A stretch of DNA of 64,000 bases from an uncultured Acidimicrobiia bacterium (GCA_963752385.1 CAVVYL010000038.1:4-64003); one strand, 5' to 3'. Numbered from the stretch's first letter, positions 4,213 to 34,965 are shown. The notes: a model not told the origin generated them from the letters alone. A program made the numbers and translations.

Positions 4213-5082
4213 TCAGCGGTCCACCGGGCTTCTCGGCTCCTCTACAGAACCCGCCGCCTGGATTTCTGCCAATGCCTTCTCGACCGTGCGCCTGGCATAG
4301 CCTTCCGGCTTCCACTTGTCGGGCCGGTATTCCGCAATCGCCTGGATCACTTCTTCTGGGTCCACTCCCAGCGCCAACTTCCGCTTGGCGTAGGCCCAGT
4401 CTCTCTCGGACTGCGTAATGTCCTTCTTCCCGCCAGCACCAGTGGACGTGGCCTTAATCGTGCCTGTTCGCGAGATACCGTCGGAGTTGAATTCCGGAAC
4501 ATTCATCCGGAAGTGTTCGGGCCTGTAAACTTCGTCAGACAGTCTTTGAGCTGTGACTTGGTGGGGTTCTGCGTACTTCTTGTTGTAGAACCCTGGAATC
4601 CGCAGAACTCTGGCCGAGTCCACGACAGCTTGGTCAGCTCCGAACTCGGCGGCCATGACTCGCTGCAAGCTCTCTGCCTGGCCGATGCTGAAATCTTGAA
4701 CCTTCCAAACCGTCTGATATTTCCCTGGCGAGGTGTTGAGAACGTAGTTCGGCTTGGGGATTCTGGGGTCATTCAGAACCTTGTCCAATACCGCTTGGCC
4801 GTCATTATCGATGTCCAGGTAGACGTGGCGAATGGTGTGGATGTCGGCTCGGGTCCTTCCGGTAGCTTCCGGCCTCAGGCTATTGACGGAGACATAGACG
4901 TTGCCACCGCGGACGTTATGAAATCTCAGCCACTTCTGAAAGTCAGGCGAAGCGATGTTCCTGGCCGTATCAATCCGCTGAATGACCTGGTCTTTGTCCT
5001 GGTTCTTGATGACGACGGCCAGGCGGTCATCCGGGTCGTAGTTTTGTTTGATGTAGTCCCAGGAGGTGATTGTGGCTGGCAT
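4213..5082 (-). CDS. RepB-type DNA primase (RSF1010 RepB'-like, AEP superfamily)
   Basis: NVYVSVNSL..RHVYLDID..TSPGKYQTVW..DSARVLRIPGFYNKK, plus a C-terminal helical domain (SERDWAYA). Confidence 0.85.
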   Translation of the reverse strand: MPATITSWDYIKQNYDPDDRLAVVIKNQDKDQVIQRIDTARNIASPDFQKWLRFHNVRGGNVYVSVNSLRPEATGRTRADIHTIRHVYLDIDNDGQAVLDKVLNDPRIPKPNYVLNTSPGKYQTVWKVQDFSIGQAESLQRVMAAEFGADQAVVDSARVLRIPGFYNKKYAEPHQVTAQRLSDEVYRPEHFRMNVPEFNSDGISRTGTIKATSTGAGGKKDITQSERDWAYAKRKLALGVDPEEVIQAIAEYRPDKWKPEGYARRTVEKALAEIQAAGSVEEPRSPVDR

Positions 5083-5100
5083 GGTTCGTTACCTCTCAAG

Positions 5101-5232
5101 CCCCTCACCCTCCCCTCTCCCCGCTTCGGGGAGAGGGCGGGAATCTGGTGGGGAACTCAACCCAGGGTTGTGCTTCGGGACTGTTGTCCCTTCGCTTCAC
5201 CCTGGGCTACCGTCTGTCGCCCTCACAGGGCT
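5101..5232. repeat. Two REP-like palindromes (CCCTCTCCCC..GGGGAGAGGG and CCCAGGG..CCCTGGG types)
   Basis: Hairpins visible directly; similar units occur at 42831-42970 and 49447-49615. Confidence 0.65.
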
Positions 5233-6200
5233 CTCTAAGGCTTGGCTCTTCTGATAGAGGGGCACCAGTTCATACTTGTCAGCCTCCACGTCGTAGCCGC
5301 GGACTTCCAGAAGCTGTGAGACGTAACGGTGTCCGTTCTTGCGCTCGATGTGCAGCAGCAGGTTGATGGAGTCTGCAAAATTGACTTTGATGGCTTTGTA
5401 GGGAAGATCGATATTCGACTGGAGCACACAGCTAACGAACCGCGAAATGGCGTGGTAGGCGGAATTGGCGTGGATGGTGGAGAGAGTGCCGGAATGGCCT
5501 GTGTTCAGGACCTGAAGGAAATCGAATGCCTCGCCGCCTCGGATTTCACCGACGATGATCCGGTCGGGCCGATGGCGAAGCGTAGCCCTGAGCAGGTCAC
5601 GAATTGTGACCGCCGGCGTGTTCGCTTGTTCACGCCGAGCTTCGAAACGGACCAGGTTGCTCCTATGGATGATTATTTCGGCGGTCTCCTCAATGACGAC
5701 GATTCTTTCCTCGTCGGAAATGAAGTCCGCCAAAATGTTCAGCAAGGTGGTCTTGCCGGTTCCGGTGCCGCCGCTGATCAGGATGTTCTGTCGGTCCTCA
5801 ACTTTCTGGCGAAGCAGCCGTGCCAAGTCCTGGTCGAGTGATTCCAGAGCGATGAGATCTTCGATGGTGAAGTGCCTTGCTGAGAATTTTCGGATGCTGA
5901 GGGTAATGCCGTGCAAGCTGCAAGGCGGAATGACGGCGGCAACACGGCTACCGTCAGGCAGACGTGCGTCCAGGATTGGCTTCGTTTCAGAGATGTCGTC
6001 TCCTAACAATCGGGCGATGTTTCTCAAAGCCACATGAAGGGACTTCTCGTTGAGCTGGATACGCGGGAACGGATTCAATCTTTCCCAGCCGCTCGATAAA
6101 GACCCGCGACGAACGCGTTGACCATGATTTCGCTGATCTCGTCGTCACGGATCAGGTGCTCAATGGGCCGGAGGAATGGAAGAATGAGATCAAAGCTCAT
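5197..6200 (-). CDS. virB11: VirB11/TrbB/CpaF-family secretion ATPase (frameshift near 6080-6110)
   Basis: Walker A GGTGTGKT, LRHRPDRIIVGEIRG, GHSGTLSTIHA. The N-terminus MSFDLILPFLRPIEHLI..ISEIMVN is in another frame and its start overlaps the coupling-protein stop. Confidence 0.9.
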
Positions 6201-8193
6201 CAGATGTCACCGTCCGCCAGTTGCTGGAAATACGACTTGTTTGGGTCGCGGTGGTAAGGCTTGAGATAGCAGTAAGCAGGAGGATGCGGATTGACCCCGT
6301 CATAGGCAATCGTGATCGATTGCTGGTTTTTCAATTGGGCGAAGATGTTCTGGTCGAAGATGTAGTCGCGCTGGACGTTGAAGCTCTTCGATGTGGAGAG
6401 CGTGGCCTTGTCGGAGAGGGTCTTTCCGAACAGGAAGCTGACCTTGGCGTCCTGAGAGCTTTCGGTCATGCTGTAATTGACCTTGAGCTTGTCCTCTTTG
6501 CCGCAAAGTTCGCTGGCGAACCTGGTGCTGAAGTCATCGGAGAGCGCCAGAAATATCTTGGTGCGGAACGTCTGGAGCAGCGTTCTCCAGGTCTCACCCG
6601 ATAACGTGCTTTTGAGACTGGAGACGCTCTGGGTTGCGACAATAGGAATGAGCTTCGCCTGACGGGAGAGGCTGAAGGCTTTTTCGTCTCCGCTCGGGTC
6701 GCTCTCCCCGGTTGTGGCGAACAGGTGGTACTCATCGCAGATAAAGAAGATCTGGCGATAGTGCTTGTCGGGCTGAACTGCCATCAACGGAATGCGGTTC
6801 AAGACCGCTCTCTGAAAATCCATCTTCAGAAAGGCGCCCAGCGCTCGGGCCAGACCAGGGTTGAATGAGGTAGGAAAGTTCAAGGCACAGACTTTGCCGC
6901 GCTCAATCAACCAGGAGAAGCCCGGCAACGGTCTGCCGTAGCGGTAGTCCTGGTTTAGCTCCGGGTCATAGCATTGTTTGGGCGGGCAGAACGTCCGTTT
7001 GACCTTAGGATTGTCGTCGAACAAAGACAGGAAGACCGAGATCCCCTCGACGACGCTGCTGCGGAGCTTCTGATCGATGGCGCACCAGTCGTCGTAAAAC
7101 CAGCGCTTGACGGCCTCGAACTGCTCCCTTTTGATGAGGTCTGACCCGATCACCGAACACTCTGAGAGTGGGCCGGTGTAACGGATGCGTTCTCCGGTCA
7201 AATACTCTGTGGCTTTCGGTGTAGTGGGTATCCGGTATTGTTTCAAGCCAGAGTCATAGGCCGGTTCGAACTTGGCTAGCTCGTCGTCATGGTCAAATAC
7301 GACCGGTTCAACCAGGTAGTAGCTTCGGACCTCAAATACCTTCTCCCCCTGCTTGATCTTCGCCTCCAGGCGTTCCCGACTGATGGCACACTCGTAGACA
7401 TCGAACAAGGTGACGTAGTCGTAGAGTATCTTGTGGAGAAGAATGATGAACTTGACCAGATTGGTGTACGCCAGCTGCCAGAAGGGTTCCTTCCCGCGGC
7501 CGAAGAGGTTGGTGAGCAGTGAGGCCACGGCATAGGCAAGCGCGTACGCGTCGAGATCGTTCTGAAACGGGTTGTAACAGTAAGTCGAGTCCAGGCTGAT
7601 TTCAACGTAGTCGCCTTCCCGGTCAAGCTCTTTGAGGATGGAGCGGACCTGGTGGCAGAAATCTCCTTTGACCTCGAGGACCAGGCCACCGATTCGCTTA
7701 GCAGGATCGCCAGCCTTGTAGGCCAGCAGCTGCCGGGTGAAGGGATACATGCAGCCGCTGGTCTTGCCGCTGCCCATGGCACCGAAGATGGCTATGCCGG
7801 TAAACAGACCTCGTTCTGGAAGAATGAGCCAGTGAGGGTTTTCAGCCGACACGGGCTTAGTGGGATGGTGGACCTCGCCGACAACTAGGAAGAGTTCTTC
7901 TCGTCGCCGAGGGTCTGGATAAGGCGGCAAGTGTTGGCCTTGCTCTTACGATGCCGGGAGCTGTAGACAAAGAGGTATAAGAAAGAGGTGAGCAGCGAAT
8001 AGGCGAAAAAAGGCGTGGTGAACAGAAACGAGACATAGGAGTATTTCAAGAAATAGAAAGCCGGAAGGTCCTTCACCCTGATCAGATTCAGAAAGACGTT
8101 GAACTCCGGAAACGGGAATCTGAAATAGAGTGCCAAGCCGGTGGCGGAAGCCGCCAGGAAAGAGAGAAAGATTCGAACCTCCAGGATTTTCAT
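6200..8193 (-). CDS. virD4: Type IV coupling protein (VirD4/TraD-like) with two N-terminal TM helices (frameshift near 7930)
   Basis: Walker A GAMGSGKT, Walker B FFICDEYH, IVATQS. ORF 7885..8193 supplies the TM N-terminus. Confidence 0.85.
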
Positions 8194-11341: not shown

Positions 11342-12013
11342 CTATTGGAAGGCTCTATCGTCACGGAAATAGGTGATGGTCAGTCCAAGAGGATTGACGG
11401 GAATCAGATCGTTTTCGACCTTCTGTTTGAAATTGAAAACAAATGAGACGGTGGAAAACTCCCGCTTGAGTTCACTGCGGTCCACGCGGGAAATGTAAAC
11501 CTTCTGCATGTCCACCTTGGCTTTGTAAGGCGGGTTCTGCATCTCTTCGAGGACCACGTTTTTGATGTCGATGTCGATCTCGGCCAGGTTGGGATCGGAG
11601 AGGTAGTTGTCCAGCACTTTACTCTTTCGAAAGCCATCGATCAGCGTGTTGGCCAACATTCCGTCGATGAAAAAGAGGGATTGAGAGAAGTTGTCCTTCA
11701 GAGTGGCCCGATTCCGGGCGTAATGCAGCTTGCAGAACTGGGAGAGGAAATACTTCATCTCGACATCCTGGGGCTTGTACGTCAAGTCCTGATAGGCGAC
11801 AGCCTGGGCCCGGCCAATCTCGTCGATGCGGATCACCAGCGGCTTGAAGTTGCGGACGGTTTGATGAGTCTTGAAGTTGAGGACCAGCAGTCCCAAAGCG
11901 ATGAAAGAGACGGCAGCCAGGGCAATCTTCAGGTACGTGTTCGTTACCAGAGCGTTGCCAAACTGGGCAAAGAAGAGCTGCTTCGCTTCGTTGAAGTCTT
12001 TGGTTTGGGACAT
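11342..12013 (-). CDS. virB8: VirB8/TrbF family T4SS protein
   Basis: One TM, KPLVIRIDEIGRAQAV, C-terminal NPLGLTITYF. Confidence 0.85.
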   Translation of the reverse strand: MSQTKDFNEAKQLFFAQFGNALVTNTYLKIALAAVSFIALGLLVLNFKTHQTVRNFKPLVIRIDEIGRAQAVAYQDLTYKPQDVEMKYFLSQFCKLHYARNRATLKDNFSQSLFFIDGMLANTLIDGFRKSKVLDNYLSDPNLAEIDIDIKNVVLEEMQNPPYKAKVDMQKVYISRVDRSELKREFSTVSFVFNFKQKVENDLIPVNPLGLTITYFRDDRAFQ

Positions 12014-12021
12014 CGAAAGAG

Positions 12022-12810
12022 TTACCTCCGACCGATCACGATAGGCGAAGTCGCCTGGCCTGCCGCTCCACTGAAGATGCTGTTGACGATGGAAGGAATC
12101 TTGGCAATGGACCACATCGCGGCAAAGAACACGATGAGCATGGCCGGGAAATTGGAAACGACCTGTTCGGCCGAGAGATTTCCCCACACGTCAAACTTCG
12201 GGCTGGTGACCATTCTTGAGAAGACGTAGATGAAAGCGTTGGCCACTACGGGATAAAAGCTGTACTGAAGGAGAGATTTGAACCAGCCCCAAAACAGCCA
12301 CTCCATCTGAGGGACGATGAAGAATGGAATGAACACCGGACCGAGCAAAACGCAGATTCCCTGGGCGACGAATCCGAGTGCAATGACGTAAAAAGTAACA
12401 ATGGCCAAGCCTGTGATGGCGAGATAGACCACGAGGTACACGAGAGCGTAGAAGACGTCCAGCGGGCCGGGCTTTTCCATTGTGTCGAGAATGTGAAAGG
12501 CAAATTCTTTGTCGAGATCGATCTTGATCTGGTTTGCCAGTTCGTAGCCCTGGTCAGTGATCAACCTGTAGAAGTTGTCGTACTCGAAGATCATGAAGTA
12601 ATTGAAGCTGATCATCAGGATGAGACTCGCGAACTTGGCGAAGTGGAATCCTTCGCCGTCGTCCGCGGAGCTGAGCGCTGCCTTAAGCCCAAACCAAACG
12701 ATCATGATGGTGGCGAAGGCCCGAAAGAGGTTCTTGCCCAGAGCCATGAAAAGACCGCTGTACTCGCCAAGAAAGGTTTTGAGTGCCTCCATGAAGTCTG
12801 GAAATGGCAT
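12022..12810 (-). CDS. virB6: VirB6/TrbL family polytopic membrane protein
   Basis: Multiple TMs; LLGPVFIPFFIVP..WLFWGW; KIPSIVNSIFSG. Confidence 0.85.
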   Translation of the reverse strand: MPFPDFMEALKTFLGEYSGLFMALGKNLFRAFATIMIVWFGLKAALSSADDGEGFHFAKFASLILMISFNYFMIFEYDNFYRLITDQGYELANQIKIDLDKEFAFHILDTMEKPGPLDVFYALVYLVVYLAITGLAIVTFYVIALGFVAQGICVLLGPVFIPFFIVPQMEWLFWGWFKSLLQYSFYPVVANAFIYVFSRMVTSPKFDVWGNLSAEQVVSNFPAMLIVFFAAMWSIAKIPSIVNSIFSGAAGQATSPIVIGRR

Positions 12811-12878
12811 GGGAATCCTCTTTGAGTGGGCCTGCCTTTGAGGAGCTGACGCGCCCACCCCGAAGCTTCGAGCTGCTA

Positions 12879-13785
12879 TTAGAACGAGGTGTAGTCTGAA
12901 ATTCTGATGGACTTATAGGCCTCGGTGGCGCCCGTGGAAGCCCATTCCCAGTCCTTCTTGAAGTTGTTCTTCAGATAGATGTCGCGGTTGATTTCGTCGG
13001 CGTAACGTTCTCGTTGTTCCTTAAGGAGAACGGCCTGGCTGTTGGCAATGACTGCGAGGAGTTTGTTCGCATCATGCTGGCCGGCGAGAGAATAGGCGGA
13101 GGCAACGTTAATGCGGTTGAGCAGGGCGGCATGGGTATTCATGTCCGGATCGTCGGACAAGGCTGCAGACGTGAGTGCGGCGACTCTGGGTTCGGAGCCG
13201 GCGATGGCGCCCGCGACACTGCCAACGGTTGCGAATGCTTGCTGTGAGGCGGCATCTGCAATGGTGACCGTGGAGGCGTTTGCCTTGATTCTGTCTTTGG
13301 TGAGCGCGTTCATCGAGGCAATAGACCTCGGCGGCATAGGAATTCAGTGGGTTGGTGCTGTTGCCGTAACTTTTGCCAAGTTCAGGACTGAGCGAACCTC
13401 CCATTGCCATCTGGATTCCGGATGTCACACCGAAGAGATCCTTAGAACCTCCCGGCCCTTGCCACCCGCCCAACGCCAGAGCATAGGCGTCCAGACCCGT
13501 CAGATATTGAGACATCTTCTTGGCCAGGTCGTAGGTCTCTTTGATCTTGTCGTAGGTCTCCTTCAGCTTGATGTAGCTGTCGACGGCGGTCTTGATTTGT
13601 TCAACCTGGTTGAGCAACTGCTGCACCCAGTTGGTGGACTGCATCGCCGTCTGAACCGCGATGGTCGCTTCGACGGTCGGGTCGTAAACAATGTCGAAAA
13701 TCCCGAGGATGGCATAGCTGGGTTGGACTGTGAGCACCAGAACCAAGAGGGATACGAGGGTGACGGTCGTGGCCTTTCTCTTCAT
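12879..13785 (-). CDS. virB5: VirB5/TrbJ-like minor pilin (frameshift near 13335)
   Basis: Signal peptide, IVYDPT motif, Gln-rich helix; lies directly upstream of virB6. Confidence 0.75.
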
Positions 13786-13804
13786 TGGGGTTCTCCTTGC
13801 TGTT

Positions 13805-14083
13805 TCAGGGTTGCCGTTTCGGTTCGTTTGGGGATTCTTGGACCTTGGAGTCCTTCTTCGAGTCTTCAGCGGATTTGGGTGACTTCTTGTCTTCCTTTTT
13901 CTGGTCGGCCATGTCGCTGATCTTCATGCTCCGATAAGCTTCGGTGGCCTCCTTCATTTCCTTCTTGTGTTCTGCCTGGGCCTTCGTTTTCTCTTCCTCA
14001 GTCCTGCGATCGGTGCTGACACGCGCATCGTGGCAGGCCAGGGTTAGGCATGCGATCAGCACAAGGGTTGTCAGGGTTCTCAT
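13805..14083 (-). CDS. Small lipoprotein, putative entry-exclusion protein (TrbK/Eex-like)
   Basis: Lipobox LTLAC; adjacent to virB5; shares a 12-aa motif with the VirB5 C-terminus. Confidence 0.7.
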   Translation of the reverse strand: MRTLTTLVLIACLTLACHDARVSTDRRTEEEKTKAQAEHKKEMKEATEAYRSMKISDMADQKKEDKKSPKSAEDSKKDSKVQESPNEPKRQP

Positions 14084-15457
14084 TTTCCTTCCTCCTTTGG
14101 AATGAATGCCCGGTCGACCGCCAGGTCACTGGGCATTTTATGGTTCACATAATCGGGCACCAAAAGGTCATTCGTAAGATACACCTTGACGCGGTGCCCT
14201 TCCAAGATTGTGGCGGTAGGAAGGATGTTGATGTAGCGGTCGAGGATTCTTTCCGAGGACCGCGAAAGACTTTCGGCGACGCCTGCTCTATACAAATCGG
14301 CGCCAGAGGCTCCCGGTCCGTAGTAGGTGACGCCTCGATTGGAGAAGCCGGAAATGAGGCCTAAGGCGACGGAAAGGCCAAAGATCCGCAGGTAGTGGTT
14401 GTTCACCTTATCCCGCAGTGCAGTCTCACCGATCTGGTTCAGGCCTTTGAATTGATCGAGACTTAGTGAGAAACCATCCGGCATGATCAATCGGTGAAAC
14501 GCTACAGCAACCCGCTGCTGGCCCAGCGTGCCTAGTTTCTGTGCTTCGCCGAGGACCTTGCTTCCCTCCGGAATGAGAATGCGTTGCCGATCATGGGAAT
14601 AGACAGGAGAGGTCACCATTGAGTTGACAGGGCCGCTGAAATCACTGTTGATGCGGTTCAGCAAAACTGTTTCCAGGACGGTGCCGGCGAGGACGCGATA
14701 CTGTTTGCCCGTGGAGTGGTTGTAATCAGCCACCTTTGCGCCGCCCGCTTTTTGGATGGTGTCGGGTGCAGCTTCTGTCTCGACCGCGGGAGTGGCCAGT
14801 GTTGACGACTGCCGCCCCGGGATCGATGGGATACCCGGTGCTGCCGCGTTTTGCTGCTGATAGAGATACGCTGGCCAGTTCGATCTCGGGGGCATCACAG
14901 GAAAGCTAGGTACATTCCCTTCACCTTGTTGGGGCGTCCTCTCACCGGCTTGGTTCTTTCCCATCACCTTGAGGAATTCTTTGAAGTTTTCAGCCTCGGA
15001 AGACTGCTTCGGCTCCTGCCTGTAGGTAAGAGCCATGTTGTTGGCAAACAGCGACTGGTAATCCTTCTTCTGCTGCTCTAGAGCAAGCTGGGTGGCGAGC
15101 GCCTCCCGGGGGTTTTGAGTGACCGTGGGTCCGGCTGAGGTGAGGGAGGAGTCGGTGAGATCTTCACTTTTGGCTGGAGGCTGTTGGCCCGAGCAGAAGG
15201 GCTTGCTGTTCCCGCAGAAGGCGCTCTTGGGCAGCTAATTGATTCTTATACTCCTCGAGCTTTGCAGTGTTGAGGCGGGAGAGATCCTGCGAATTGCCTG
15301 GAGTCGCATTCTGTTTGGCCGGCTTCCTGTCGCTACCGCTGGTCAGCCAGATGATGACGATGAGGACCGTGGCTACGCCCAGGATGACGTAGTTCTGCAA
15401 CTGCTTGGGCATCAGCCCTGGAGGCTTCTGGGCTTTTTGGTCAATCGTCTCGCTCAT
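14080..15457 (-). CDS. virB10: VirB10/TrbI core complex protein (frameshift near 15120-15170)
   Basis: N-terminal TM in ORF 15164..15457; GTVLETVLLNRINSDFSGPV..ILIPEGSKVLG..VNNHY..PTATILEG. Confidence 0.9.
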
Positions 15458-16239
15458 CCCTGTCTCCGGAACTCCATCTTTTTCTTACCCACCTGCAGAT
15501 AGCCTTGGTCGAGGACCTTGGGCACGATGTAGCAGCCATTCTCCAACTGGAAGTTCACCAGATTGGGCTTGCCGTCCTTGATCTCATAGATGGCAGGCTT
15601 TTCGCGCGCGTTGCTGTGGATGTAAGTGAAAGACTCGTCGTGAAAAATGGCAGCGACGTTGAAGGGCGCCTGGTTCTTGTACGCGTATTGGAACCTCAGA
15701 GAAGAAGGATACTGGGAGCGGTACTGAGAGATCTGCTTCTCGGTGGTCTTTGCAGCCTCAGACTGAGTTTTTGCGATCTGCTCCTGCAGGGTTACCAGTT
15801 GAGCTTTGTAGCGAGCCAGCTCTTCGGCTGGTACGAAGCGCGGATTCGGTGAGGAAAGGGCACTGACGACAGACTGATCTCTAGGTTCCACGAAGACCTT
15901 GTAATCCGCGTCTCCGCTTGGGATCTCTGTCAAGACGAACGAATAGATGTTACCGCTGGCACAGATCAGATTGAGGTTAGAACTCGCCCCTTCCTTGGCG
16001 GGATGCACATAACAGAAGTTCTGAGCGCCATTGACAATCCAATGCTCTTTGTCTCCGGTCGTGAAATCGAGGATCTGTTCGCTGGCAGGAAGGACAATGG
16101 CTGTCGATACCCGCATTTGGCAGCGGAGCTCGATGATGTCCTTGTTGGAATACTGGATCACCCGCGCCTTTCGATCCTGGGCAACAAGCGGACCACAGGT
16201 GGTGAGAGAGAGAAAAAGGAAAACGAGAGTGCGCTTCAT
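15454..16239 (-). CDS. virB9: VirB9/TrbG core complex protein
   Basis: Signal peptide; STAIVLPASEQI..GDKEHW; IFHDESFTYI..PAIYE..LVNF. Start overlaps the virB4 stop. Confidence 0.85.
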   Translation of the reverse strand: MKRTLVFLFLSLTTCGPLVAQDRKARVIQYSNKDIIELRCQMRVSTAIVLPASEQILDFTTGDKEHWIVNGAQNFCYVHPAKEGASSNLNLICASGNIYSFVLTEIPSGDADYKVFVEPRDQSVVSALSSPNPRFVPAEELARYKAQLVTLQEQIAKTQSEAAKTTEKQISQYRSQYPSSLRFQYAYKNQAPFNVAAIFHDESFTYIHSNAREKPAIYEIKDGKPNLVNFQLENGCYIVPKVLDQGYLQVGKKKMEFRRQG

Positions 16240-18692
16240 GCCGTTTGCCTCCTGGCAAGGATTTTGAGTCCTTCGGTGAGCCCATGCTGGGCGATGACTT
16301 CTTTCTTTTTGAGGTTGTCCATGGGATCGCTGGTATAGAGCCAGTAGCTGACCGGATCGACGTTCAGATTCACGACTTTGGTAATGTCGGGGCGTTTGAT
16401 CAGCATCTGCTGTTTGGGAACCAGCGTCGTGATGAGGTCCACCTCTTTGTCGTTGAGATGGAAGACACCCTGATAGAGCTCCGTGTCCATGTCCGGATTG
16501 GCCAGGAAGATCTTGGTCGAGCAAGACTCAAGGATCAGGTTCAGGATTTCCGATTTCTTGAGCTCATCCGCCGATTGAGTAGCGAGGATCATGGCGCCGT
16601 TTTTCTTGCGCCAAGTCTTGAGGGCCTTGGTGATGTACTCCTTGATGGTCGCGTTTCGGAAGAACACCCAGGCTTCATCAATGATGAAGGCTTTCAGCAC
16701 GCCGGCGAGCTGGTCATCCTGGATGATGGCGTTGGCCCGGTGGAGGAGGTAGAACAGCAGGGGCTCAATGAGCTGGGGATACCTCTCCATCCCCTCGAAT
16801 TCAATGCACTGGAACCGGGAAAAGGTGAGGGTGTCCTCGGGATTGTCGAACAGAAAGCCGAACTGTCCATCGTTGGTCCACTTGTGCAAGGCCTCCTTGA
16901 GCGTGTCCGGCAAAGTGTTCCGCAACGTGGAGAGCCTTCGCAGCGGCGCATCAATGGAGTAGATCATCTCGATCTGATCGAAGAGGTCTTTCTCTTCCTT
17001 GTGAGAGAGCTGATGCTTTCCGCCGTCGTGGATCAGCAGTGAGAAGAAGGTGAAGAGGAAACTCAGATTGTCTCGGGTCGGCGGGAGGCAGAAGGGGTTG
17101 ATGCAGAAGCTTTGCGATTGCAATCCTACCCGCAGATAGGAGCCACCGAACAGCTCCGTGAGGCTTCGGTAGGAGCCTCCCACGTCGAAAATGAATGTGT
17201 GGGGGGCGTACTTCTGCAGGAACGTGATCAGGAAATTCAGCAGGAAGGATTTGCCGCTGCCGGACTTCCCGAGAATAGTCGTGTGCGCCAGGTCGCCGCA
17301 ATGAAGGTTCAGAAAATACGGTGTCTTGTGCGTTGACTCCAGGACTGCCAGATATTCGCAATCGAGATGACTGTTGCGGCGCTCGCCTTGATGCAGGGTG
17401 AAGAAGAAAGAGTAGTCGGCATAGTTAGTGTTGAGGATGTACATCCTGCGGAGGTTGAGGTGATAGTTCCCGGGGACGACAGCAAGGTAGGCGTTCAAGA
17501 GGTTGTAACGCTCGTCGATGAGGATGGCATCGACCGTGGAGAAAATCTTAGAGAACTCGGAAATCGCGCGATCGATGTGGGCCAGGTCACGGTCATAGAG
17601 AACGACCGTCAGGGAGAATTCCCCGAAGGTGTGCCCGTGGATCACGATTTCCTTGTTCGCTTCTCCTAGCTCCTGAATGAGTGATTCCTTACTGTCGTCC
17701 ACGAGAAAGTCGCTCCCTGGACGGGACGTTTCGGGCTGCCCAAGGTAGCTGAAGATCGACATCTTGGAATTGTGGTAATGCCGTCGCCGGCTTTGAATGC
17801 CTTTCTGGATTTTGTTGCTGTCCACCGGATGCCACTCCGAGCAGACAATGAAGTTGGCTTCCACTTCGAGGAGTCGCTTGAAGATCAGCGGAAAGCTCTG
17901 GCTGGAGGGCTCCTTAAGCGTGAGGACCTTCACGAAATAATCGTCGACCAGCAGGTGACCGCGGTGGCATTCCACCGTGCTGTCGGGCAAGTAATAGTCG
18001 AGGAACGCATCATGTTTCAGCCGGGCGAAGTCTAGCTTGTGAGGTGCAAAGTTCAGCAGACGTTTCAGGACCTGGAAGGCTTCATTCTTGTGAAGAAGCG
18101 TGAGCCGGCAGAGATCGCTGAGTTGGCTGACGAAGCTATTCGCTCGGTGGAGCAGCGTTGCGATGCCTTCGTCAACTTCGGCTTCGATCAGCACGACTTC
18201 CGCGCTGGTCGAGAAGGCACCGACGATTTCTCCAGCGGCCTTGCCAGGGTCCGAAGCAAACTTGGAGATTCGTTGCAAGAATGATGTCTTGTGCCGGAAC
18301 CCCTCATGGAGGATCACGTAGTAGATCTGGATGGAGTAGAGCTCTACAGCCCGGCTGGCCAGGTAGTCCGCTCGGTTCTTGATGGCTTGGTTGACCAGCT
18401 CGTTGTCATAGAGCTGGCAGGAAATCCTCTCGTTATTTCGCTTGAACAGGTACTGGTAGATCCGGTACTGCTCGCCAAATCCGCGCATGGCGACTTCAAA
18501 CCGCCGCGTCATGTTGTCGAGAGTGTTTTGGTCCAGGCACTCGTGATCGATACCATCGACGTGGACCACAACGCCGAGGTCACCAGATTTAGTGAGAAAG
18601 ACTTGATCGTCAGCAAAGCCGTAGAGGTTGATGTACTCATTCAGCGTGCCGGCGTTGTTGTAGTCTTTGAACAATTTGGCCAGATTAATCAT
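16236..18692 (-). CDS. virB4: VirB4/TrbE ATPase
   Basis: Walker A GKSGSGKS, FDVGGS, Walker B FIIDEAW, RKKNG..LATQS. Confidence 0.95.
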   Translation of the reverse strand: MINLAKLFKDYNNAGTLNEYINLYGFADDQVFLTKSGDLGVVVHVDGIDHECLDQNTLDNMTRRFEVAMRGFGEQYRIYQYLFKRNNERISCQLYDNELVNQAIKNRADYLASRAVELYSIQIYYVILHEGFRHKTSFLQRISKFASDPGKAAGEIVGAFSTSAEVVLIEAEVDEGIATLLHRANSFVSQLSDLCRLTLLHKNEAFQVLKRLLNFAPHKLDFARLKHDAFLDYYLPDSTVECHRGHLLVDDYFVKVLTLKEPSSQSFPLIFKRLLEVEANFIVCSEWHPVDSNKIQKGIQSRRRHYHNSKMSIFSYLGQPETSRPGSDFLVDDSKESLIQELGEANKEIVIHGHTFGEFSLTVVLYDRDLAHIDRAISEFSKIFSTVDAILIDERYNLLNAYLAVVPGNYHLNLRRMYILNTNYADYSFFFTLHQGERRNSHLDCEYLAVLESTHKTPYFLNLHCGDLAHTTILGKSGSGKSFLLNFLITFLQKYAPHTFIFDVGGSYRSLTELFGGSYLRVGLQSQSFCINPFCLPPTRDNLSFLFTFFSLLIHDGGKHQLSHKEEKDLFDQIEMIYSIDAPLRRLSTLRNTLPDTLKEALHKWTNDGQFGFLFDNPEDTLTFSRFQCIEFEGMERYPQLIEPLLFYLLHRANAIIQDDQLAGVLKAFIIDEAWVFFRNATIKEYITKALKTWRKKNGAMILATQSADELKKSEILNLILESCSTKIFLANPDMDTELYQGVFHLNDKEVDLITTLVPKQQMLIKRPDITKVVNLNVDPVSYWLYTSDPMDNLKKKEVIAQHGLTEGLKILARRQTA

Positions 18693-18972
18693 GGCGAACA
18701 CGCCTAACGGTAACGGGCTTGAACTTGACGGGACAGTACACAGCTTTGAACTTTGATGAATTGAGCAGAATGCGGAGGATTTGCGGATCGGTCTTCGTAG
18801 CCATTTGTCCAAAGGCGAACAGGGCTGCAAAGACTAGCAAGCCTCCGAGAAACGACCCCATCATGTTGAAAGTGGCGGCGCCCATGACTGCGGCGCAGAA
18901 GAAGAGCTTTCGTTCCACGCCGAGGATAGTCAGCGGCCGGTTGAGTGACTTGTAGACTCGGTTCATTCGCAT
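18685..18972 (-). CDS. virB3: VirB3/TrbD
   Basis: VYKSLNRPLTILGVER, two TMs, DPQ motif. Confidence 0.85.
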   Translation of the reverse strand: MRMNRVYKSLNRPLTILGVERKLFFCAAVMGAATFNMMGSFLGGLLVFAALFAFGQMATKTDPQILRILLNSSKFKAVYCPVKFKPVTVRRVRHD

Positions 18973-18988
18973 GAGGGTCACCGAAACA

Positions 18989-19310
18989 TTAAGCGACGCC
19001 AAACAGCCAGCTCATGAAATTCACTGCACCCAGGGCCATTCCAAGACCGAAGACAATCCCGGCGAAGACCTTCTTCGAACCGCCTTCGCTAAAGGCAAAC
19101 ATGAGTCCGCCAATGACAATTGCGATGAGTGACAGTCCCCGAGCCAGAGGGCCCGTGAACGAGAGCTGGAGCAGATTGGTGGCATTCTCCCAAGGCGAAC
19201 CTGCCTGGGCGAACAAGGGATGCTGACAGCAGTGAGATCAGGACCAGCACGAGAGCCTGGACTGTTTTTCTCTTTGCAAGATAAGAGAGGCGAGGCCTTA
19301 TGTCGTTCAT
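18989..19310 (-). CDS. virB2: VirB2/TrbC pilin (frameshift near 19220)
   Basis: Leader MNDIRPRLS..LVLISLLSA, then AQAGSPWE..FTGPLARGLSLIAIVIGGLMFAF. Confidence 0.85.
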
Positions 19311-19816: not shown

Positions 19817-19909
19817 CGAAGGTGTGAAAAAATCAAAAGCATGTGACTAGCGATATAGCTATGATATAATCTGGGCCATACTGTGAGACCAAGCCGTGGA
19901 GGTATGGCC

Positions 19910-20113
19910 ATGGGGTTTATCAGCAAAGTACAGGTGATCCAGCGGGGGGAGAAGAATCGCCAATTTTATTTTATTTGTCCGGCCCCGTTAGCGCAGGCTC
20001 TGGAGATTGAGAAGGGGGAAGAGATTGAATGGGTGGTGGAGGACAAACAGCGGCTGACGATTCGCCGCGTGTCCCTCAGCCAGAAATCTCGGAGGCCGCG
20101 CCATGGGAAATGA
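19910..20113 (+). CDS. AbrB/MazE/SpoVT-like DNA-binding protein
   Basis: FYFICPAPLAQALEIEKGEEIEWVVE; TATAAT at 19865 and GGAGG RBS; overlaps the transposase start. Confidence 0.7.
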   Translation: MGFISKVQVIQRGEKNRQFYFICPAPLAQALEIEKGEEIEWVVEDKQRLTIRRVSLSQKSRRPRHGK

Positions 20114-21681
20114 ACAGACCACTGGGCTGGCCGAGCCGGTAGAAGGCGCCGGCGTGGTGGAGAAGTCGGGCGGGGAGGCGATCCGACCCCGACCGAGGGT
20201 ACAGGCCATTGATCGGCAACAAGGGTGGCTGCGTTCGGTCGTGGTGGAGGAATTGGTGGAGGAGGACCATCCGGTACGGGCCATTTGGGAACTGATGGGG
20301 CAGGTGGATTTGAGCCGCTATTATGAGACGATCCGGGCCGTGGAAGGGGTGGCAGGGGCCGAGGCCACGGCTCCGCGCTTATTGGTGAGTTTGTGGATTT
20401 TGGCTTACAGTCAGGGGGTGAGTTCGGCGCGCGAGATCGAGCGGCGGTGCGGCTATCATCCGGCCTACCAGTGGCTGACGGGGATGAGCGTGATCAACCA
20501 TCACACGGTGTCGGATTTTCGGACGGAGCATGGCGCCGCATTGGAGGAGTTGTTTGTCGAAGTTTTGGGGGTGCTGAGCAGTGAAGACCTGGTCGACCTG
20601 AAGCGGGTCATGCACGATGGCATGAAGGTGAAAGCCTTCGCGGGGACGGATAGTTTTCGTCGTGAGGCTCGATTGCAAAAGCATTTGGAGGCCGCACGGG
20701 AACAGGTAGTGGAGATGAACCGGTTGGCCCACGGTGAAGAAACGAGCGCGCAGGTGGTGGCGGCTCGCCAGCGAGCGACCCGAGAGAAGCAACAGCGACT
20801 GGAGCTGGCCTTGCGGGAGTTGAAAAAAGATCCAAGCGCTCAAGAGGGGAAGCGAACAGAAGCAACGGGCTCGAGCCAGTCGGAGTGATCCGGAAGCCCG
20901 CATCATGAAGCAAAGCGATGGAGGCTATGCGCCCAGTTACAATGCGCAGATTTCGACCGACGCCAAACGGACCATCATCGTGGCGGCCGAGGTGAGCCAG
21001 TCCGGTAGCGACTATGAGGAGCTGGTGCCGGCCGAGGAGCGCATCGAAGACACTTGCGGGCAGGCCCCGGCCGAGTTGGTCGCCGACGGAGGATTTACCA
21101 GCCGAGCCAATATTATCGAGATGGAGCAACGGGGCGTTAACTTCATCGGGTCGATGGGAGACGGCCAGGCCCAATCAGTAGGGCAACTGGAGCGGCGGGG
21201 CGTGGCGCCCGAGTTTCGGCCCGAGGCCTTTGTCTATGACTGCGAGCACAACACCTACACCTGCCCTCAGGGCCAGATCCTCAAGTATGAGAGTCAGGAA
21301 AAAAGAATAGGGATCATCCACAATCTCTATCGAGCCAGGGCGGCCGATTGCCAGGCCTGCCCGCTGAAGTCGCAGTGTTGTCCGCAGAAGGCTGCCAAGG
21401 GACGCTCGATCGTCCGCAGTGTCGAAGACCCGGTGGTGGTGTCTTTTCGCCAGAAAATGGAAACCGAGGCAGCCCAACAGGCCTACCGGCAACGGGGGGC
21501 GGTGGCCGAGTTTCCCAACGCTTGGATCAAAGAAAAGCTCGGGCTGCGTCAGTTCCGTTTGCGCGGGTTGGCAAAGGTGAGAATGGAACTGTTCTGGGCT
21601 TGCCTAACTTATAACGTGCAACAGTGGATTCGGCTGTGCTGGCGTCCCCGCTTGGCGATGGCCCAGGGCGGACTGTCTTGA
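20103..21681 (+). CDS. IS1182-family DDE transposase (frameshift in A-run near 20825)
   Basis: EDHPVRAIW, SSAREIER, HDGMKVKA, SDPEARIMK..YNAQ, VADGGF, CPQG..CQACPLKSQC, FRLRGLAKV. Confidence 0.9.
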
Positions 21682-23847: not shown

Positions 23848-26800
23848 ATGATCAAATTCGCCATGAATCGGCCCGTGACGGTGTTCATGTTTTTCGTGGC
23901 GATTGTCCTCTTCGGCATCGTCTCACTGGATCGGCTGGCTCTGAACCTCCTCCCGGACATTTCCTACCCTTCGCTTACCGTTCAAACCGACTATCCCGAC
24001 GCAGCTCCAGAAGAAGTCGAAAGCCTGATTACCCGGCCGATTGAGGAAGCCGTCGGCGTCGTGCCAGGGCTCACCAGGTTGGGTTCTGTCTCGCGCTCCG
24101 GACAGTCGGAAGTAGTGCTGGAGTTTGGCTGGAAGACCAATATGGACCTTGTGGCGCTGGACGTGCGCGAGAAACTCGATGTCGTGGACCTTCCGCGCGA
24201 TGTGGAGCGCCCGGTGATCCTTCGCTTCGATCCTTCCTATGATCCCATCATGCGATTGCAGCTCTACGGCGATCTGAGCTTGAGCCGCCTTCGCTATGCG
24301 GCTGAGAAAGAGCTGAAGAAAAGCCTGGAGTCGACAGAAGGTGTTGCTGCCATCAAGGTCATTGGCGGACTGGAGGAGCAGATCCGTATCGAGATTGATG
24401 AGAAGCGCCTGGCCGAACTGGGGATTCCTATCACACAGGTGACTCAGATCCTGGCTCAGGAGAATCTCAACCAGGCCAGCGGCAGCCTGTACGACCTGGA
24501 TGCCAACTACCTGGTGCGCATGCTGAACCAGTTTCGATCGGTGGAAGAGATTCAGCAGATCATCATTCGCAATCAAGAAGGCCGCAAAGTGGTGTTGGGC
24601 GATGTCGCAAAAGTGTGGAGAGGCAGCAAAGACCGCGAAATCATCGCCCGTCTCAACGGCAAGGAAAGCGTCGAGATGGCGATCTACAAAGAGGGCGATG
24701 CCAATACGGTCACCGTCGCCCAAGGTGTTTCACGGCGCCTCGACTCGTTAAAAAAAGCCAATCAGTTTCCTCGTGGCGTGGACTATCAGGTCGTCTTTAA
24801 CCAGGCGGAGTTCATCGAGAATGCTGTCGAAGACGTTCAGTCTTCGGCAATCCTCGGTGGCCTCCTGGCGGTACTGGTGCTCTACGTCTTCCTCCGAGAC
24901 CTTCGCAGCACCTTAACCATCGGTCTTTCCATTCCGATTTCCATCATGGCGACGTTTGCGCTGATGTACCAGACAAACATCGCTCTCAACATCATGTCGC
25001 TGGGAGGAATTGCACTGGGAGTGGGGACGCTGGTTGATAACTCCATCGTGGTGCTGGAGGCGGTCCATCGTCACAGGAGTTCGGAACGAACATTGTTTGA
25101 GGCCGTGTACAACGGAACCAAAGAAGTTGGAATGGCTGTTAGCGCTTCAACGCTCACGACGGTAGTGGTTTTTCTACCCATGATCTTTGTCGAGGGGATC
25201 GCCGGACAGTTGTTCAAGGATCAAGCCTTGACAATCACCTATTCACTGATGGTTTCGATGCTGGTCGCCCTGACATTCTTGCCGATGATTCTGTCTTTGC
25301 AAGCGCAGAAGCCTGGGCTCCTGAGTGCCGACATGTCGCCAGGCGAGGGCGCTGCCGGCAATTTGGCCTCTCCAGCAACTGCAAGCCGCTTCCGTCGTAG
25401 GCTGGCCCTTTACTCGCGAAGATCAGGGATGCCGGGCGTTTCTTAACTTCCGATTTAGTGGTTGTTGTCCTGACCGATCTACGGAAGCTGTTCCGATTCC
25501 TGGGTCTTCTCTTCTTGAAACCTTTCAATCCAATCTTGGACCAGTGGGAGCGCGCCTATAACAAACTGAGCGGTGCTTATCCCAGGTTGTTGCTCTGGGC
25601 CTTGAACAACAAGGCATCCGTGATCGGTCTATGCCTGTTGCTTTCCGTCGTTGCCGCAATCTTATCCTTTCAACTCGGCGCAGAGCTTATCCCGCCGTTG
25701 ACTCAAGGCGAGTTCGCGTTTGAGATCCGATTGCCAGAGGGTCGGCCTCTGCAACAGACCGATCGGCTCATCGGCGACATCGAAAGAAAGGTGGGGAGTT
25801 ATCCCCAAGTCCTAACGGTATTCTCCAGCGTCGGCGGGAGCAACAAGAACCAGTTCGCTCGGGAATCTCACGAAGAAAACGTGGGCCAGTTGTTCGTTGT
25901 GATGAAAAACAAGCAAGACAAAGCCAGCGAAAGGTCAGTCATTAGCCGTATCCGCGCTGAGCTGGAAGAGTATCCGGAAGTGACCTTTACGTTCAGCCGT
26001 CCAACCCTGTTCAGCTTAAAGACGGCGGTCGAGGTCGAGATCTATACCTATGATTTGTCCAGTCTGCATTCCACGGCTGAAAAAGTGGCTGCCCGGCTGC
26101 GTCAGATTCCTGGTCTCACCGACATCAAGACCAGCACCGAACTGGGCAGCCCGGAACTGCATATCCTTGTCGACCGGGATCGGTTGGCGCGCTTGGGTTT
26201 GGAAGAAAGTCAAGTGGCGAATATTCTGCGAAACAAAATCCGGGGCGATGTAGCCTCGCGCTACCGTGAAGAAGACAAGCAGATTGAGATTCTGGTGCGG
26301 GCCAATGAGTCGGATCGGAATACGATTGACGACATCAAGAACCTGGTCATCAACATGGGAGCAGTGATACCGACGAATCCGCGCATCAGTGTGGCTGAAC
26401 GGATCGCGGCGCGCAACAGCAGCCAGGGCGGTCGACCGCTGCGCCGCGACGAGCAGGACGTGCGGGATGAAGAGCTGGCTGCGCCGACTCGAAGCTCCGT
26501 CCCTTCACCCTCAGTGGTGCCGATCCGCCTTGGATCGGTGGCTGATGTGGTGATCGCGCGAGGCCCCAGCGAAATTCGCCGTATTCGGTCGCAGCGTGCC
26601 GCTGTGGTGTCTGCCAATCTGAGCGGCCGCGACTTGACCAGTGTGTCTGAGGATATTCGGCGTGAACTCCAACAGTTGCGAAGTGAGATCCCCGAACATA
26701 CCACGATTGGTCTGGGCGGACAGAACGAGGAGCTGGAAGCTTCTTACAAGACCCTTGTTCTGGCGCTGGCGCTGGCAGTATTTCTGGTCTATCTAGTCAT

Positions 26801-27347
26801 GGCCTGCCAATTCGAGTCGCTGCTCCATCCGTTTATTATCATGTTCACCGTACCGCTTGGATTGGCGGGTGTCGTGTTCACTCTTTTCATCACCCAAACC
26901 ACTTTCAACGTGATGGTATTTCTCGGGGTCATCATCCTGGCCGGGATCGTAGTAGACAACGCCATTGTTTTGATCGATTACGCCAACCAACTCCGCCAGC
27001 AAGGCCTGTCAAAACGAGAGGCTCTGCTGAAGGCCGGGGAGGTGCGTTTGCGCCCGATTCTGATGACGACCTTGACCACGGTCTTAGGACTCATCCCTAT
27101 GGCGCTGGGCTGGGGCGAAGGTGCAGAAGTGCGTGCGCCCATGGCCATTACTGTGATGGGCGGACTGTCGTTCTGCACGGTCTTAACGCTGGTGTTGATT
27201 CCGGTCATCTACGAACTAATCGACCGCAAGGTATACGCGGGCGACGCCGTCACCAGAGTTTCCGTTTCACGGTTCGAACCGCGCGGGGTCAGTCCCCAGG
27301 ATGCAGACGTCAGATCTCAGCTGTCAGGCGCCAGCCCTGAAAGTTAA
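23848..27347 (+). CDS. RND permease subunit 1 (AcrB/CusA superfamily; frameshift near 25440)
   Basis: RPVTVFMF, PEEVE, GTLVDNSIVVLE, GIVVDNAIVLID, RLRPILMTT. Confidence 0.9.
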
Positions 27348-30500: not shown

Positions 30501-30776
30501 ACGGCCAGCACCACGGTGGTAGGCTTGATCCCGCTGGCGGTCGGCACGAGTGGCATCTTCGAGCTGCGTTACTTCCCGCTGGCGCGCACGGTGATTGGTG
30601 GTCTGGTAGCGTCGACCGTGTTGACGCTCATCGTGCTTCCCACCTACTACACTCTTTTCGACGATCTCGCCATCTGGCTCAAACGCACTTGGCTCGCCAG
30701 CAACCCAACACGCGCCAAGGCCCAGCCAGACGCGGTGGCCAGTCGAGGTTCGGAGGTGGCCAGCTTGCCACGGTAA
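27504..30776 (+). CDS. RND permease subunit 2 (frameshifts near 29700 and 29850)
   Basis: SIRYPVT, GMLVDNAVVVLE, GIVVNNGIVMLD, RFRPILMTA, spread across three ORFs. Confidence 0.9.
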
Positions 30777-33769: not shown

Positions 33770-34713
33770 CTATACCGAGCCAATCCCGATTCGATCGTTA
33801 ACCGCGGACCGAATTCGCTGTTTGCATCCGAGGTAGCGCTCGGTCGTTTGAATTGATACGTGCCCCAAGCAGAAACTGGATCTGTTCGAGTTCTCCTCTA
33901 GCCGCATAACATAGCCGGGCACACGTCCGACGAAGGTCATGCGGTGCCAACTTGTCGATTCCCGCTTTGGCTGCATATTCACGGACGATATGCCACACAG
34001 CTTTTTCTGTGATGTTGTCACCCCCAAGCCTTTCCGGTCCTGTTCAGTCTGCGAAAGAGCTTCCCGGATCTGACGTTCGCAGCTTTCACCCAATCGTCGA
34101 GGATTTGCTTGACCCATGATGGCATTGGAATCGTTCGCATATGACCGCCCTTACCCTTTAGGTCAACAATTGCCCAGTGCTCCTCTCGCTGTTGGATATG
34201 TTCTACTTCAAGGTCAACAGCTTCATGCCGCCTGACTCCGCAGGCTAGCATTACGGCCAGGAGTGCCCGATCACATTTGCCTTTCAACCGCTCGCCATCA
34301 GGTGCCTGCCACAATCTCTGTGACTGATCAGCGGTGAGCCAGTTTCCAAGCCGGACACCGAGTTTCTTCACCCCTTCACTCGCCGGATGCCGGCGGCCAG
34401 GTCTGCGCTCAGAAGTCCGCTGTCGGCTGCCTCGCACGCGAGTCGGCGGACGGTTCCTAAGCGAAGATTGATTGTTCCTGAAAAGACGTGACTCGAGGTG
34501 AATTCGATAACGTAAGACTACTGTCTTATTGAACGACAGCCTGGGTTCGGAACAATACCACTCCACGAACTCATCAATTACGTGTCGGTAGCCTCGCTGA
34601 GCTTCCGCCGAGCTTAGGCTATTCAGTACCGCGGATTTCGCCTGGTCCAACTCCGTTAAATGAAGGACCGTCTTAGGCGTACGGCGCCACCGCGAAGAAT
34701 TCTTCTTTCCCAT
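33770..34713 (-). pseudogene. Tyrosine recombinase (XerC/D-like) with at least three frameshifts
   Basis: WYCSEPRLSFNK, GVRLGNWL, CGVRRHE, GKGGHMRT, PHDLRRT, LGH, TTERYLG. No IntI-specific insertion is apparent. Confidence 0.85.
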
Positions 34714-34965
34714 CGTTGGCGGCCCTCCTCGACCGCACAACGATGATGCATGTGGACCGAACTGTCCGTTTGGCCCGTTAATCACCAGTAAGAGTTCTGC
34801 GGATCTTGCCGGTAGAAATCTACTTTGAGCGCAAGATTCGGATAGCGCGAAGTGGGCGGGTCATAATAGGGTCTTCTATGGAATACTGGAGTTCAGGTCT
34901 TCGACAAACTTCGTCGAAACAAAGATTGACCAAAAGGTCTTCACACGCAAGAGAAGGAGTTGGCA

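Follow-up and report, generated by a model that had tools for sequence, protein, structure and literature searches.

A putative TrbK-like entry-exclusion lipoprotein with an internal copy of the VirB5/TrbJ tail in a conjugative element of an uncultured Acidimicrobiia bacterium

Entry exclusion governs which conjugative elements enter which cells. Here we compare the described exclusion systems with a locus on 64,000 nt of DNA from an uncultured Acidimicrobiia bacterium (GCA_963752385.1, CAVVYL010000038.1:4-64003; this whole stretch is hereafter referred to as the window), where a conjugative type IV secretion system (T4SS) operon encodes a predicted 92-residue lipoprotein bearing a copy of the tail of the neighboring VirB5/TrbJ-like protein. 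The closest described counterpart is TrbK of IncP-type plasmids (RP4 and R751; TIGR04359) and of Ti plasmids (TIGR04361). This small protein, a lipoprotein or otherwise anchored in the membrane, is encoded next to trbJ within the operon for mating-pair formation. Haase is said to have found in 1996 that TrbK alone excludes in recipients without other transfer genes. To our knowledge, no donor-side target of the exclusion lipoprotein has been identified for P-, N- or W-type systems.

The C-terminus of TrbK is required for exclusion, and TrbK is dispensable for transfer of pKPC_UVA01 (PMC8923210). Recipients expressing trbJ together with trbK are protected against the RP4 T4SS (PMC11045733), and a 2026 preprint reports 3.5-fold exclusion by trbK alone and about 10^4-fold exclusion by trbJ plus trbK (bioRxiv 10.64898/2026.09.24.754286). 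TrbJ and TrbK of the Ti plasmid are described as synergistic (PMC3907764, citing Cho 2009).

Three further systems invite comparison. EexN of IncN and IncW plasmids (R46 and R388, respectively; NF033894) is a lipoprotein adjoining virB5, as is the window protein, but contains a Cys-containing domain that the latter lacks. VirB7 and TrbH, members of the outer-membrane core complex, are small lipoproteins likewise encoded among virB9/virB10 genes; VirB7 carries the VirB9-binding motif P-[ILV]-N-K. Finally, Tpf (XAC2611) of the Xanthomonas antibacterial T4SS, a periplasmic DUF4189 protein unrelated to the former, acts in the target cell, where it binds directly to VirB5 and blocks the cognate T4SS; Tpf and VirB5 are both highly variable (bioRxiv 10.64898/2026.05.09.723464). 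The preprint presents this as the first case in which physical contact between an exclusion protein and its target on a T4SS was demonstrated, and asks whether exclusion proteins of other systems contact VirB5 as well. In contrast to the lipoprotein tether considered here, Tpf has a globular, disulphide-rich domain, and the accessible text reports no copy of the VirB5 tail in it. According to a 2025 review, VirB5 forms a pentamer on the stalk and sits at the pilus tip; where its accessible sections address entry exclusion, only the TraS–TraG pair is discussed (PMC12624023).

In the window, the 12-residue peptide ATEAYRSMKISD occupies residues 46–57 of the 92-residue protein, and its counterpart ATEAYKSIRISD ends four residues (YTSF) before the stop codon of the adjoining VirB5/TrbJ-like gene. 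Translation placed both peptides where the sequence-only reading had located them (Table 1). The two are identical at nine of 12 residues, with conservative changes at the other three, and at 23 of 36 nucleotides, with synonymous differences (GAG/GAA, GCC/GCT, TCC/AGC, ATT/ATC and TCA/AGC) that bear out the earlier proposal of a match kept at the protein level rather than a recent duplication. None of 500 tail shuffles compared with the open reading frames (ORFs) beside trbJ reached the ungapped BLOSUM62 score of the pair (48; null 25.7 ± 3.9). When the TrbJ tail was compared with all six frames of the window (128,001 residues), the lipoprotein copy was the top match, followed by one scoring 38; at this scale, 3 of 300 shuffles attained 48. 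The window tail scored no more than 31 with small proteins encoded at 14 other loci. The motif match is real, and chance is an unlikely source of it.

The lipoprotein gene is tightly embedded, its ATG overlapping the trbI/virB10 stop codon by 4 nt and its end lying 19 nt before the trbJ start; its position upstream of virB5 and the internal location of the motif are thus as originally described. A database search returned only six close homologues (71–89% identity, on short contigs without context), and related loci contributed seven further relatives. Across the 14 aligned lipoproteins, identity falls to 27–34%. Cys17 of the predicted lipobox is invariant in all 14, in support of the earlier lipoprotein call, as are Leu7 and Leu9. 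In the mature part, K44, A49, D57, A59 and K62 are the sole (nearly) invariant positions, and all of them lie within or beside the motif. The mature protein is highly charged overall, including a charged tail of 35 residues after ATEAYRSMKISD. A low-confidence structure model (pLDDT 62) predicts one long helix spanning the motif and disorder in the last ~25 residues.

Co-variation of the two motifs was assessed in close relatives. Searching with the C-terminal part of TrbJ yielded six metagenome loci, a narrower alignment yielded only one genome locus (L027), and a class-wide profile search (see below) added two genomes of the window family (L112 and L088). With TrbJ sequences given up to the stop codon, the lipoprotein/TrbJ pairs read ATEAYRSMKISD/ATEAYKSIRISDYTSF in the window (core AYRSMKISD/AYKSIRISD), ATDAYRSMKISD/ATEAYKAIRISDYTSF in L021 (AYRSMKISD/AYKAIRISD) and SQAYRSLKISD/NEAYRSTRISDYVRF in L112 (AYRSLKISD/AYRSTRISD). 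In the other branch, represented by L022, L023, L024 and L027, they read ATEALK[NS]F[RK][TI]TD/AD[NTA]ALK[SA]FKVSDFAFK, e.g. ALKNFRTTD in the lipoprotein and ALKSFKVSD in TrbJ. Between the branches, Tyr is replaced by Leu and Met/Ile by Phe jointly in both proteins. The check that the sequence-only reading had suggested, co-variation across homologous loci, hence showed that the two partners of a locus have the motif in common and that it differs from one locus to the next. Since just two or three independent branches are involved, this co-variation is only suggestive when taken alone. Contig ends remove one partner in two cases, leaving the lipoprotein only in L026 and TrbJ only in L088. In L027, virB4, virB9, virB10 and trbJ are all in pieces, a pattern that resembles sequencing indels.

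In the bacterial class to which the window belongs, a profile built from 18 TrbJ-like proteins found matches in 82 of 401 genomes, a tally that includes three unpublished genomes (G462, G489 and G615) left out of the later scans. With two split matches merged, 113 places were taken with 2.5-kb flanks, leaving out the three unpublished genomes, two pieces of the window's own genome and one fragment of 70 residues. In 112 usable loci, the last 30 TrbJ residues were then compared with the six-frame translation of their own locus, the tail itself being masked, and with 200 shuffles. The best tail match exceeded every shuffle in 25 of these loci (z 6.8–18.8), and each of the 25 matches fell into a small neighboring ORF on the same strand. 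In 23 cases, the ORF lay directly downstream of trbJ, thus occupying the TrbK position, and each of the two motifs ran to the very C-terminus (for instance, NEGNTWQTYLP versus NEGKTWKTYIP); the remaining two were upstream lipoproteins with an internal copy of 27 residues. The downstream group comprises at least three motif variants, ending in GGSQIWTTYLP, NQGDTWNNYLP and NEGNTWQTYLP, each paired with its own neighbor (L155 and L152 versus others, e.g. L143).

A restricted scan, limited to the flanks beside trbJ and using 500 shuffles, covered 104 of 117 loci, the other 13 having been dropped as their TrbJ N-terminus did not match the pattern used. Here, 32 loci reached p ≤ 0.01. One of them (L084) is false, its match lying inside TrbI and not in a lipoprotein, and in L146, a locus split by frameshifts, the "tail" used in both scans was not the true one. 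Reading the dropped and weaker loci by hand revealed more upstream-lipoprotein pairs with unrelated motifs in G716 (two copies), G583, G731, G179 and L017; lipoprotein and TrbJ read LWNGTTEAQKRRIP/IWGGTTAARMVRLP in G716 (both up to the stop codon), FDGTTKALKEMRIP/FTGTTAVLSTYRIP in G583 and LEKSLRNFKLP/LESTLANFRIP in G731 (TrbJ up to the stop codon in both). Clustering of the 93 distinct TrbJ proteins at 50% identity yielded 10 groups, four of which contained significant copies (20 of 23 loci, 4 of 16, 3 of 5 in the window clade, and 1 of 2). The cognate score was higher than that of every target from other clusters in 24 of 28 significant loci. Tail copying is thus recurrent and element-specific, but not universal. 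In the largest cluster, the best neighboring match of the tail repeatedly falls on one conserved segment of TrbI/VirB10 (L093, L095, L101, L103, L107, L108, L113 and L115); as none of these matches is significant by itself (p 0.07–0.96), they were dropped.

Established P-type plasmids display the same relationship. TrbJ relatives were sampled across PLSDB, nine of 469 matching records being fetched, and the TrbJ tail matched the TrbK tail at p ≤ 0.001 in all 10 readable P-type plasmid pairs, among them R751 and pTiC58. In R751, TrbJ ends in GSYRASPARTW and TrbK, the annotated entry-exclusion lipoprotein, in GDFKPSPKREW, while TrbJ and TrbK of pTiC58 have ~25 C-terminal residues in common. Counting R751, all seven annotated TrbJ/TrbK pairs matched at this threshold, several with a motif of their own, e.g. 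QMRTWTFRPSPADNY/QMRQWEFKPSPKDDY in R485, NPLNWLSI/NPRDWLSI in a Comamonas plasmid and NITRSEPSTWS/NITRSQPKTWS in pL21564-1. An eleventh record, p591229_1, whose TrbK region crosses the record end, is outside this count. No trbK is listed for pDC04 or for a Neisseria plasmid; both have an ORF in the TrbK position that ends in the TrbJ tail. The pDC04 ORF (L180, between 1756 and 2019) encodes a lipoprotein-like product of 80 residues, the last 11 of which are identical to the TrbJ tail, and that of the N. gonorrhoeae conjugative plasmid (L181, between 1744 and 1979) a lipoprotein-like product of 46 residues that ends in the cognate TrbJ tail. Neither ORF is in the PLSDB gene table, which is incomplete, and the original records may annotate them.

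The ends of EexN and VirB5 are also alike and flush at the C-termini (FV[FL]G....SP.I for R46 and GMP.I. for R388), with score p-values of 0.15 and 0.14 that make this resemblance a hint only. The EexN model covers residues 4–59 of the 75-residue R46 protein (L171, 8192–8419) and 2–64 of the 76-residue R388 protein (L172, 5883–6113). The last 12–16 residues, including the VirB5-like end, hence fall outside the model, which would fit a variable specificity tail. The sequence-only reading had treated the C-terminal similarity of TrbJ and TrbK as known. It does hold in all 10 plasmid pairs; our full-text literature search found no statement on TrbJ/TrbK (VirB5/Eex) tail similarity, Haase 1996 and Cho 2009 not being covered, so that an older description is possible. 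Nor is a shared VirB5/Eex tail mentioned in the accessible sections of PMC8923210, PMC11045733, PMC12624023, PMC13717191, PMC13381706 and the two preprints.

The VirB5/TrbJ-like partner does adjoin the lipoprotein gene, as had been claimed, but is not a single open frame in the window: relative to the intact 302-residue L021 protein (94% nucleotide identity), a one-base insertion near 13324 splits it, leaving open frames at 13108–13785 and 12879–13337. Its relatives have full-length open frames of 275–354 residues. We consider the partner TrbJ-like, on partly indirect grounds, from its position before virB6/trbL, its signal peptide, the N-terminal V.D.T motif, its helical architecture and weak profile links; its N-terminal part matched TIGR02780 and NF010448 below their cut-offs (E 0.0021 and 0.0032, respectively). 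Modeled with AF2 (93-row alignment, pLDDT 73.6), the intact L021 protein has predicted helices at residues 37–95, 161–209 and 220–299, the tail motif forming the end of the last long helix, where pLDDT drops from 67 to 53. Complex prediction for L021 TrbJ (residues 27–302) with the mature lipoprotein (18–92) scored 0.00 in two runs without controls, which is evidence neither for nor against an interaction. In L006 (G289, oriented 949–1953), a lipoprotein signal peptide and TrbJ share a single open frame of 334–342 residues, which may represent a lipoprotein–TrbJ fusion or a lost stop codon.

The ORF list together with Pfam and NCBIfam matches delineates the conjugative T4SS operon on the minus strand of the window, at 4.2–19.2 kb, in the order VirB2 pilin, VirB3, VirB4, VirB9/TrbG, VirB10/TrbI, the 92-residue ORF, the TrbJ/VirB5-like protein, TrbL/VirB6, VirB8/TrbF, two unknown genes, a VirD4-like coupling protein, a VirB11-like ATPase and RepB primase (Table 1). 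The last three (4213–7930) mark the system as conjugative. By the ORF list, trbL/virB6 follows directly 3′ of trbJ and the TrbK position holds no gene. The virB10 gene is split as well, DNA alignment to L021 (458 residues in the intact relative) revealing a one-base insertion near 15191. Further split genes in the window, namely two AcrB-type genes and a transposase, appear as adjacent ORFs (20103–21681, 23848–27347 and 27504–30776). Since these other genes are also split, assembly error and decay are indistinguishable here, and the frameshifts could reflect either an indel-rich assembly or real decay. A MazE-like antitoxin ORF (19883–20113) adjoins the operon and a phage-integrase-family ORF (34018–34785) lies 15 kb off; both are consistent with an integrated mobile element.

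Table 1. Positions of the lipoprotein, its TrbJ/VirB5-like partner and the surrounding operon in the window
Feature	Position	Strand	Basis
virB2 pilin	18989-19216	minus	Pfam TrbC
virB3	18685-19002	minus	Pfam VirB3
virB4	16236-18830	minus	Pfam CagE_TrbE_VirB
virB9/trbG	15454-16524	minus	Pfam CagX
Upstream operon part (virB9/trbG to virB2)	15454-19216	minus	Pfam
trbI/virB10, whole	14080-15457	minus	Pfam TrbI 1.1e-42
trbI/virB10, N-terminal TM part	15164-15457	minus	split ORF
trbI/virB10, TrbI domain part	14080-15036	minus	split ORF
92-aa lipoprotein gene	13805-14083	minus	ORF list; no family model reached
Predicted signal peptide with lipobox, residues 1-17 (...LTLAC, Cys17)	14033-14083	minus	read from sequence
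Internal copy of TrbJ tail, ATEAYRSMKISD, residues 46-57	13913-13948	minus	translation
TrbJ/VirB5-like, N-terminal part up to frame loss	13324-13785	minus	signal peptide, FD.V.DPT motif, long helix
TrbJ/VirB5-like, C-terminal part in other frame	12879-13337	minus	98% identical to residues 156-302 of intact L021 protein
TrbJ tail motif, ATEAYKSIRISD	12894-12929	minus	4 residues (YTSF) before stop
trbL/virB6	12022-12858	minus	Pfam TrbL 6.4e-13
virB8/trbF-like	11342-12187	minus	Pfam VirB8 2.9e-11
VirD4-like coupling protein	6200-7930	minus	Pfam
VirB11-like ATPase	5197-6078	minus	Pfam
RepB primase	4213-5082	minus	Pfam

Taking these observations together, we read the 92-residue product as a membrane-anchored periplasmic lipoprotein of a conjugative T4SS element that probably (at roughly 60%) serves as a TrbK-like entry-exclusion factor mimicking the VirB5/TrbJ tail. 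It shares with TrbK the N-terminal lipoprotein anchor and a copy of the cognate TrbJ tail, the latter being a criterion set in this analysis and not a published definition. The exclusion activity, docking partner and site of action that we infer would combine as follows. The mature protein would be a charged, largely unstructured or single-helix tether that displays the tail copy. The TrbJ tail itself would dock on a partner from the same element, either the TrbJ body or pentamer or TrbL/VirB6, and without this docking an incoming machine would neither open nor engage. In the periplasm of a cell already harboring the element, the lipoprotein would present the same peptide and fill the docking site at the tip of the donor's cognate machine, whereupon transfer would be aborted. 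As tail and docking site are proposed to co-evolve, the copy would have to follow the tail, and exclusion specificity would be set in this way. Judged by sequence, what is new in the window protein is its gene position, the internal motif and the lack of kinship to known exclusion families.

Several points weigh against this interpretation. The window gene lies between trbI and trbJ, upstream of the latter, whereas trbK lies between trbJ and trbL. In the plasmid pairs, the TrbK motif is flush with the C-terminus in seven of 10 and within 2–6 residues of it in the other three, while the window protein has an internal motif and continues for 35 charged residues beyond it. The protein is no sequence member of the TrbK families, and its motif is unrelated in sequence to the plasmid motifs: it matched neither TrbK_RP4 (TIGR04359) nor TrbK_Ti (TIGR04361) at E ≤ 1, nor EexN (NF033894), and its relatives remained below the cut-offs of these models, too. 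Only three relatives gave values in the range of E 0.02–0.15, namely L010 and L018 with the TrbK models (0.15 and 0.07, respectively, far under the cut-offs) and L016 with EexN (0.023; 14.6 bits for a cut-off of 33). Control proteins were readily recovered (R751 TrbK, 1.2e-29; EexN of R46 and R388, 6.9e-20 and 7.6e-21). The kinship of the partner to TrbJ is distant as well. TrbJ models were matched by only five of the 93 family members (best 6.8e-9), and hhalign of the family with nine IncP-like TrbJ proteins gave a probability of 41% (E 2.9e-4) over the N-terminus only, with 8.7% for R751 TrbJ alone. Foldseek comparison of the TrbJ model with the PDB yielded no match at E ≤ 0.001, the solved VirB5 structure 7o3v_I ranking eighth (E 2.1). 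Furthermore, six of the 10 TrbJ clusters, including the largest (28 loci), have no detectable copy near trbJ, so a tail copy is not obligatory. The frameshifts in trbJ and virB10 may mean that the window carries an inactive system, unless they are assembly errors. Lastly, no second VirB7-like lipoprotein was seen in the operon (ORF list, Pfam), and the 92-residue protein could therefore be the structural one.

This last point leads to the main rival, which we regard as unlikely: a structural T4SS lipoprotein standing in for VirB7/TrbH, without any exclusion role, that shares a docking peptide with TrbJ through use of the same site in its own cell. Such a protein might hold a place or act as a tether while the stalk is being assembled. 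Apart from the lack of another lipoprotein candidate, such a role would suit a gene directly 3′ of, and translationally coupled to, trbI/virB10, and three loci from another TrbJ cluster (L004, L005 and L015) carry at the same position a short, proline-rich lipoprotein that looks VirB7-like and lacks the motif. However, the window protein reached no Pfam or NCBIfam family of T4SS lipoproteins, VirB7 and TrbH included, and its sequence contains no PxNK motif. Its mature part is conserved at the TrbJ-like motif only, a further difference from VirB7/TrbH. Plasmids that encode both TrbH and TrbK carry the tail copy on TrbK, the exclusion protein, which is dispensable for transfer in the case of pKPC_UVA01 (PMC8923210).

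Alternatively, the two proteins might have the peptide in common as a signal for sorting, processing or quality control, recognized by some factor of the host or the element, e.g. a peptidase or a step of export; it would then not compete for a TrbJ docking site. Terminal signals typically sit at the very C-terminus, as both motifs do in the 23 downstream cases and in the majority of TrbJ/TrbK pairs, and many tails do end alike (W, Y[LI]P or R[ILM]P); in the window clade, however, the copy is internal to the lipoprotein and lies four residues from the TrbJ end. Moreover, the motif is highly variable between elements and matched within each of them, which favors an element-encoded, co-evolving partner over a host factor. 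We therefore judge such a signal improbable. It is scarcely credible that the resemblance is functionless, whether it arose by chance or composition or was left behind by an ancient local duplication. With 12 residues, the motif is short, and shuffles occasionally equal its score at the scale of the whole window; yet it is conserved, varying in concert between branches whose lipoproteins are 27–34% identical, and independent families show the same pattern although their motifs are unrelated.

Beyond the window, we tentatively propose, giving the idea somewhat less than even odds, that P-type (VirB-like) conjugation systems in general use a copied VirB5 tail as the recognition code of entry exclusion, with unrelated small envelope proteins each having acquired a co-evolving copy from their own element. 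Besides TrbK of IncP and Ti plasmids, candidates may include the upstream lipoproteins, the membrane proteins encoded downstream and perhaps EexN. The broader pattern may be the more valuable result, if absent from the older literature: all the P-type TrbJ/TrbK pairs inspected bear tail copies, as do several unrelated small proteins from a different bacterial class. Co-variation of the copy with VirB5 in many unrelated elements suggests that the target of exclusion is VirB5 or the binding partner of its tail. If the general code is true, the docking site of the VirB5 tail on the incoming machine would turn out to be the target, long sought, of these exclusion proteins, exclusion groups would be readable from sequence alone, and the window protein would be an independent invention with a new gene position and an internal motif. 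This hypothesis at the level of a peptide would thereby offer a route to predicting exclusion groups and to finding unannotated exclusion genes, such as the lipoprotein of the window and the ORFs of pDC04 and the Neisseria plasmid.

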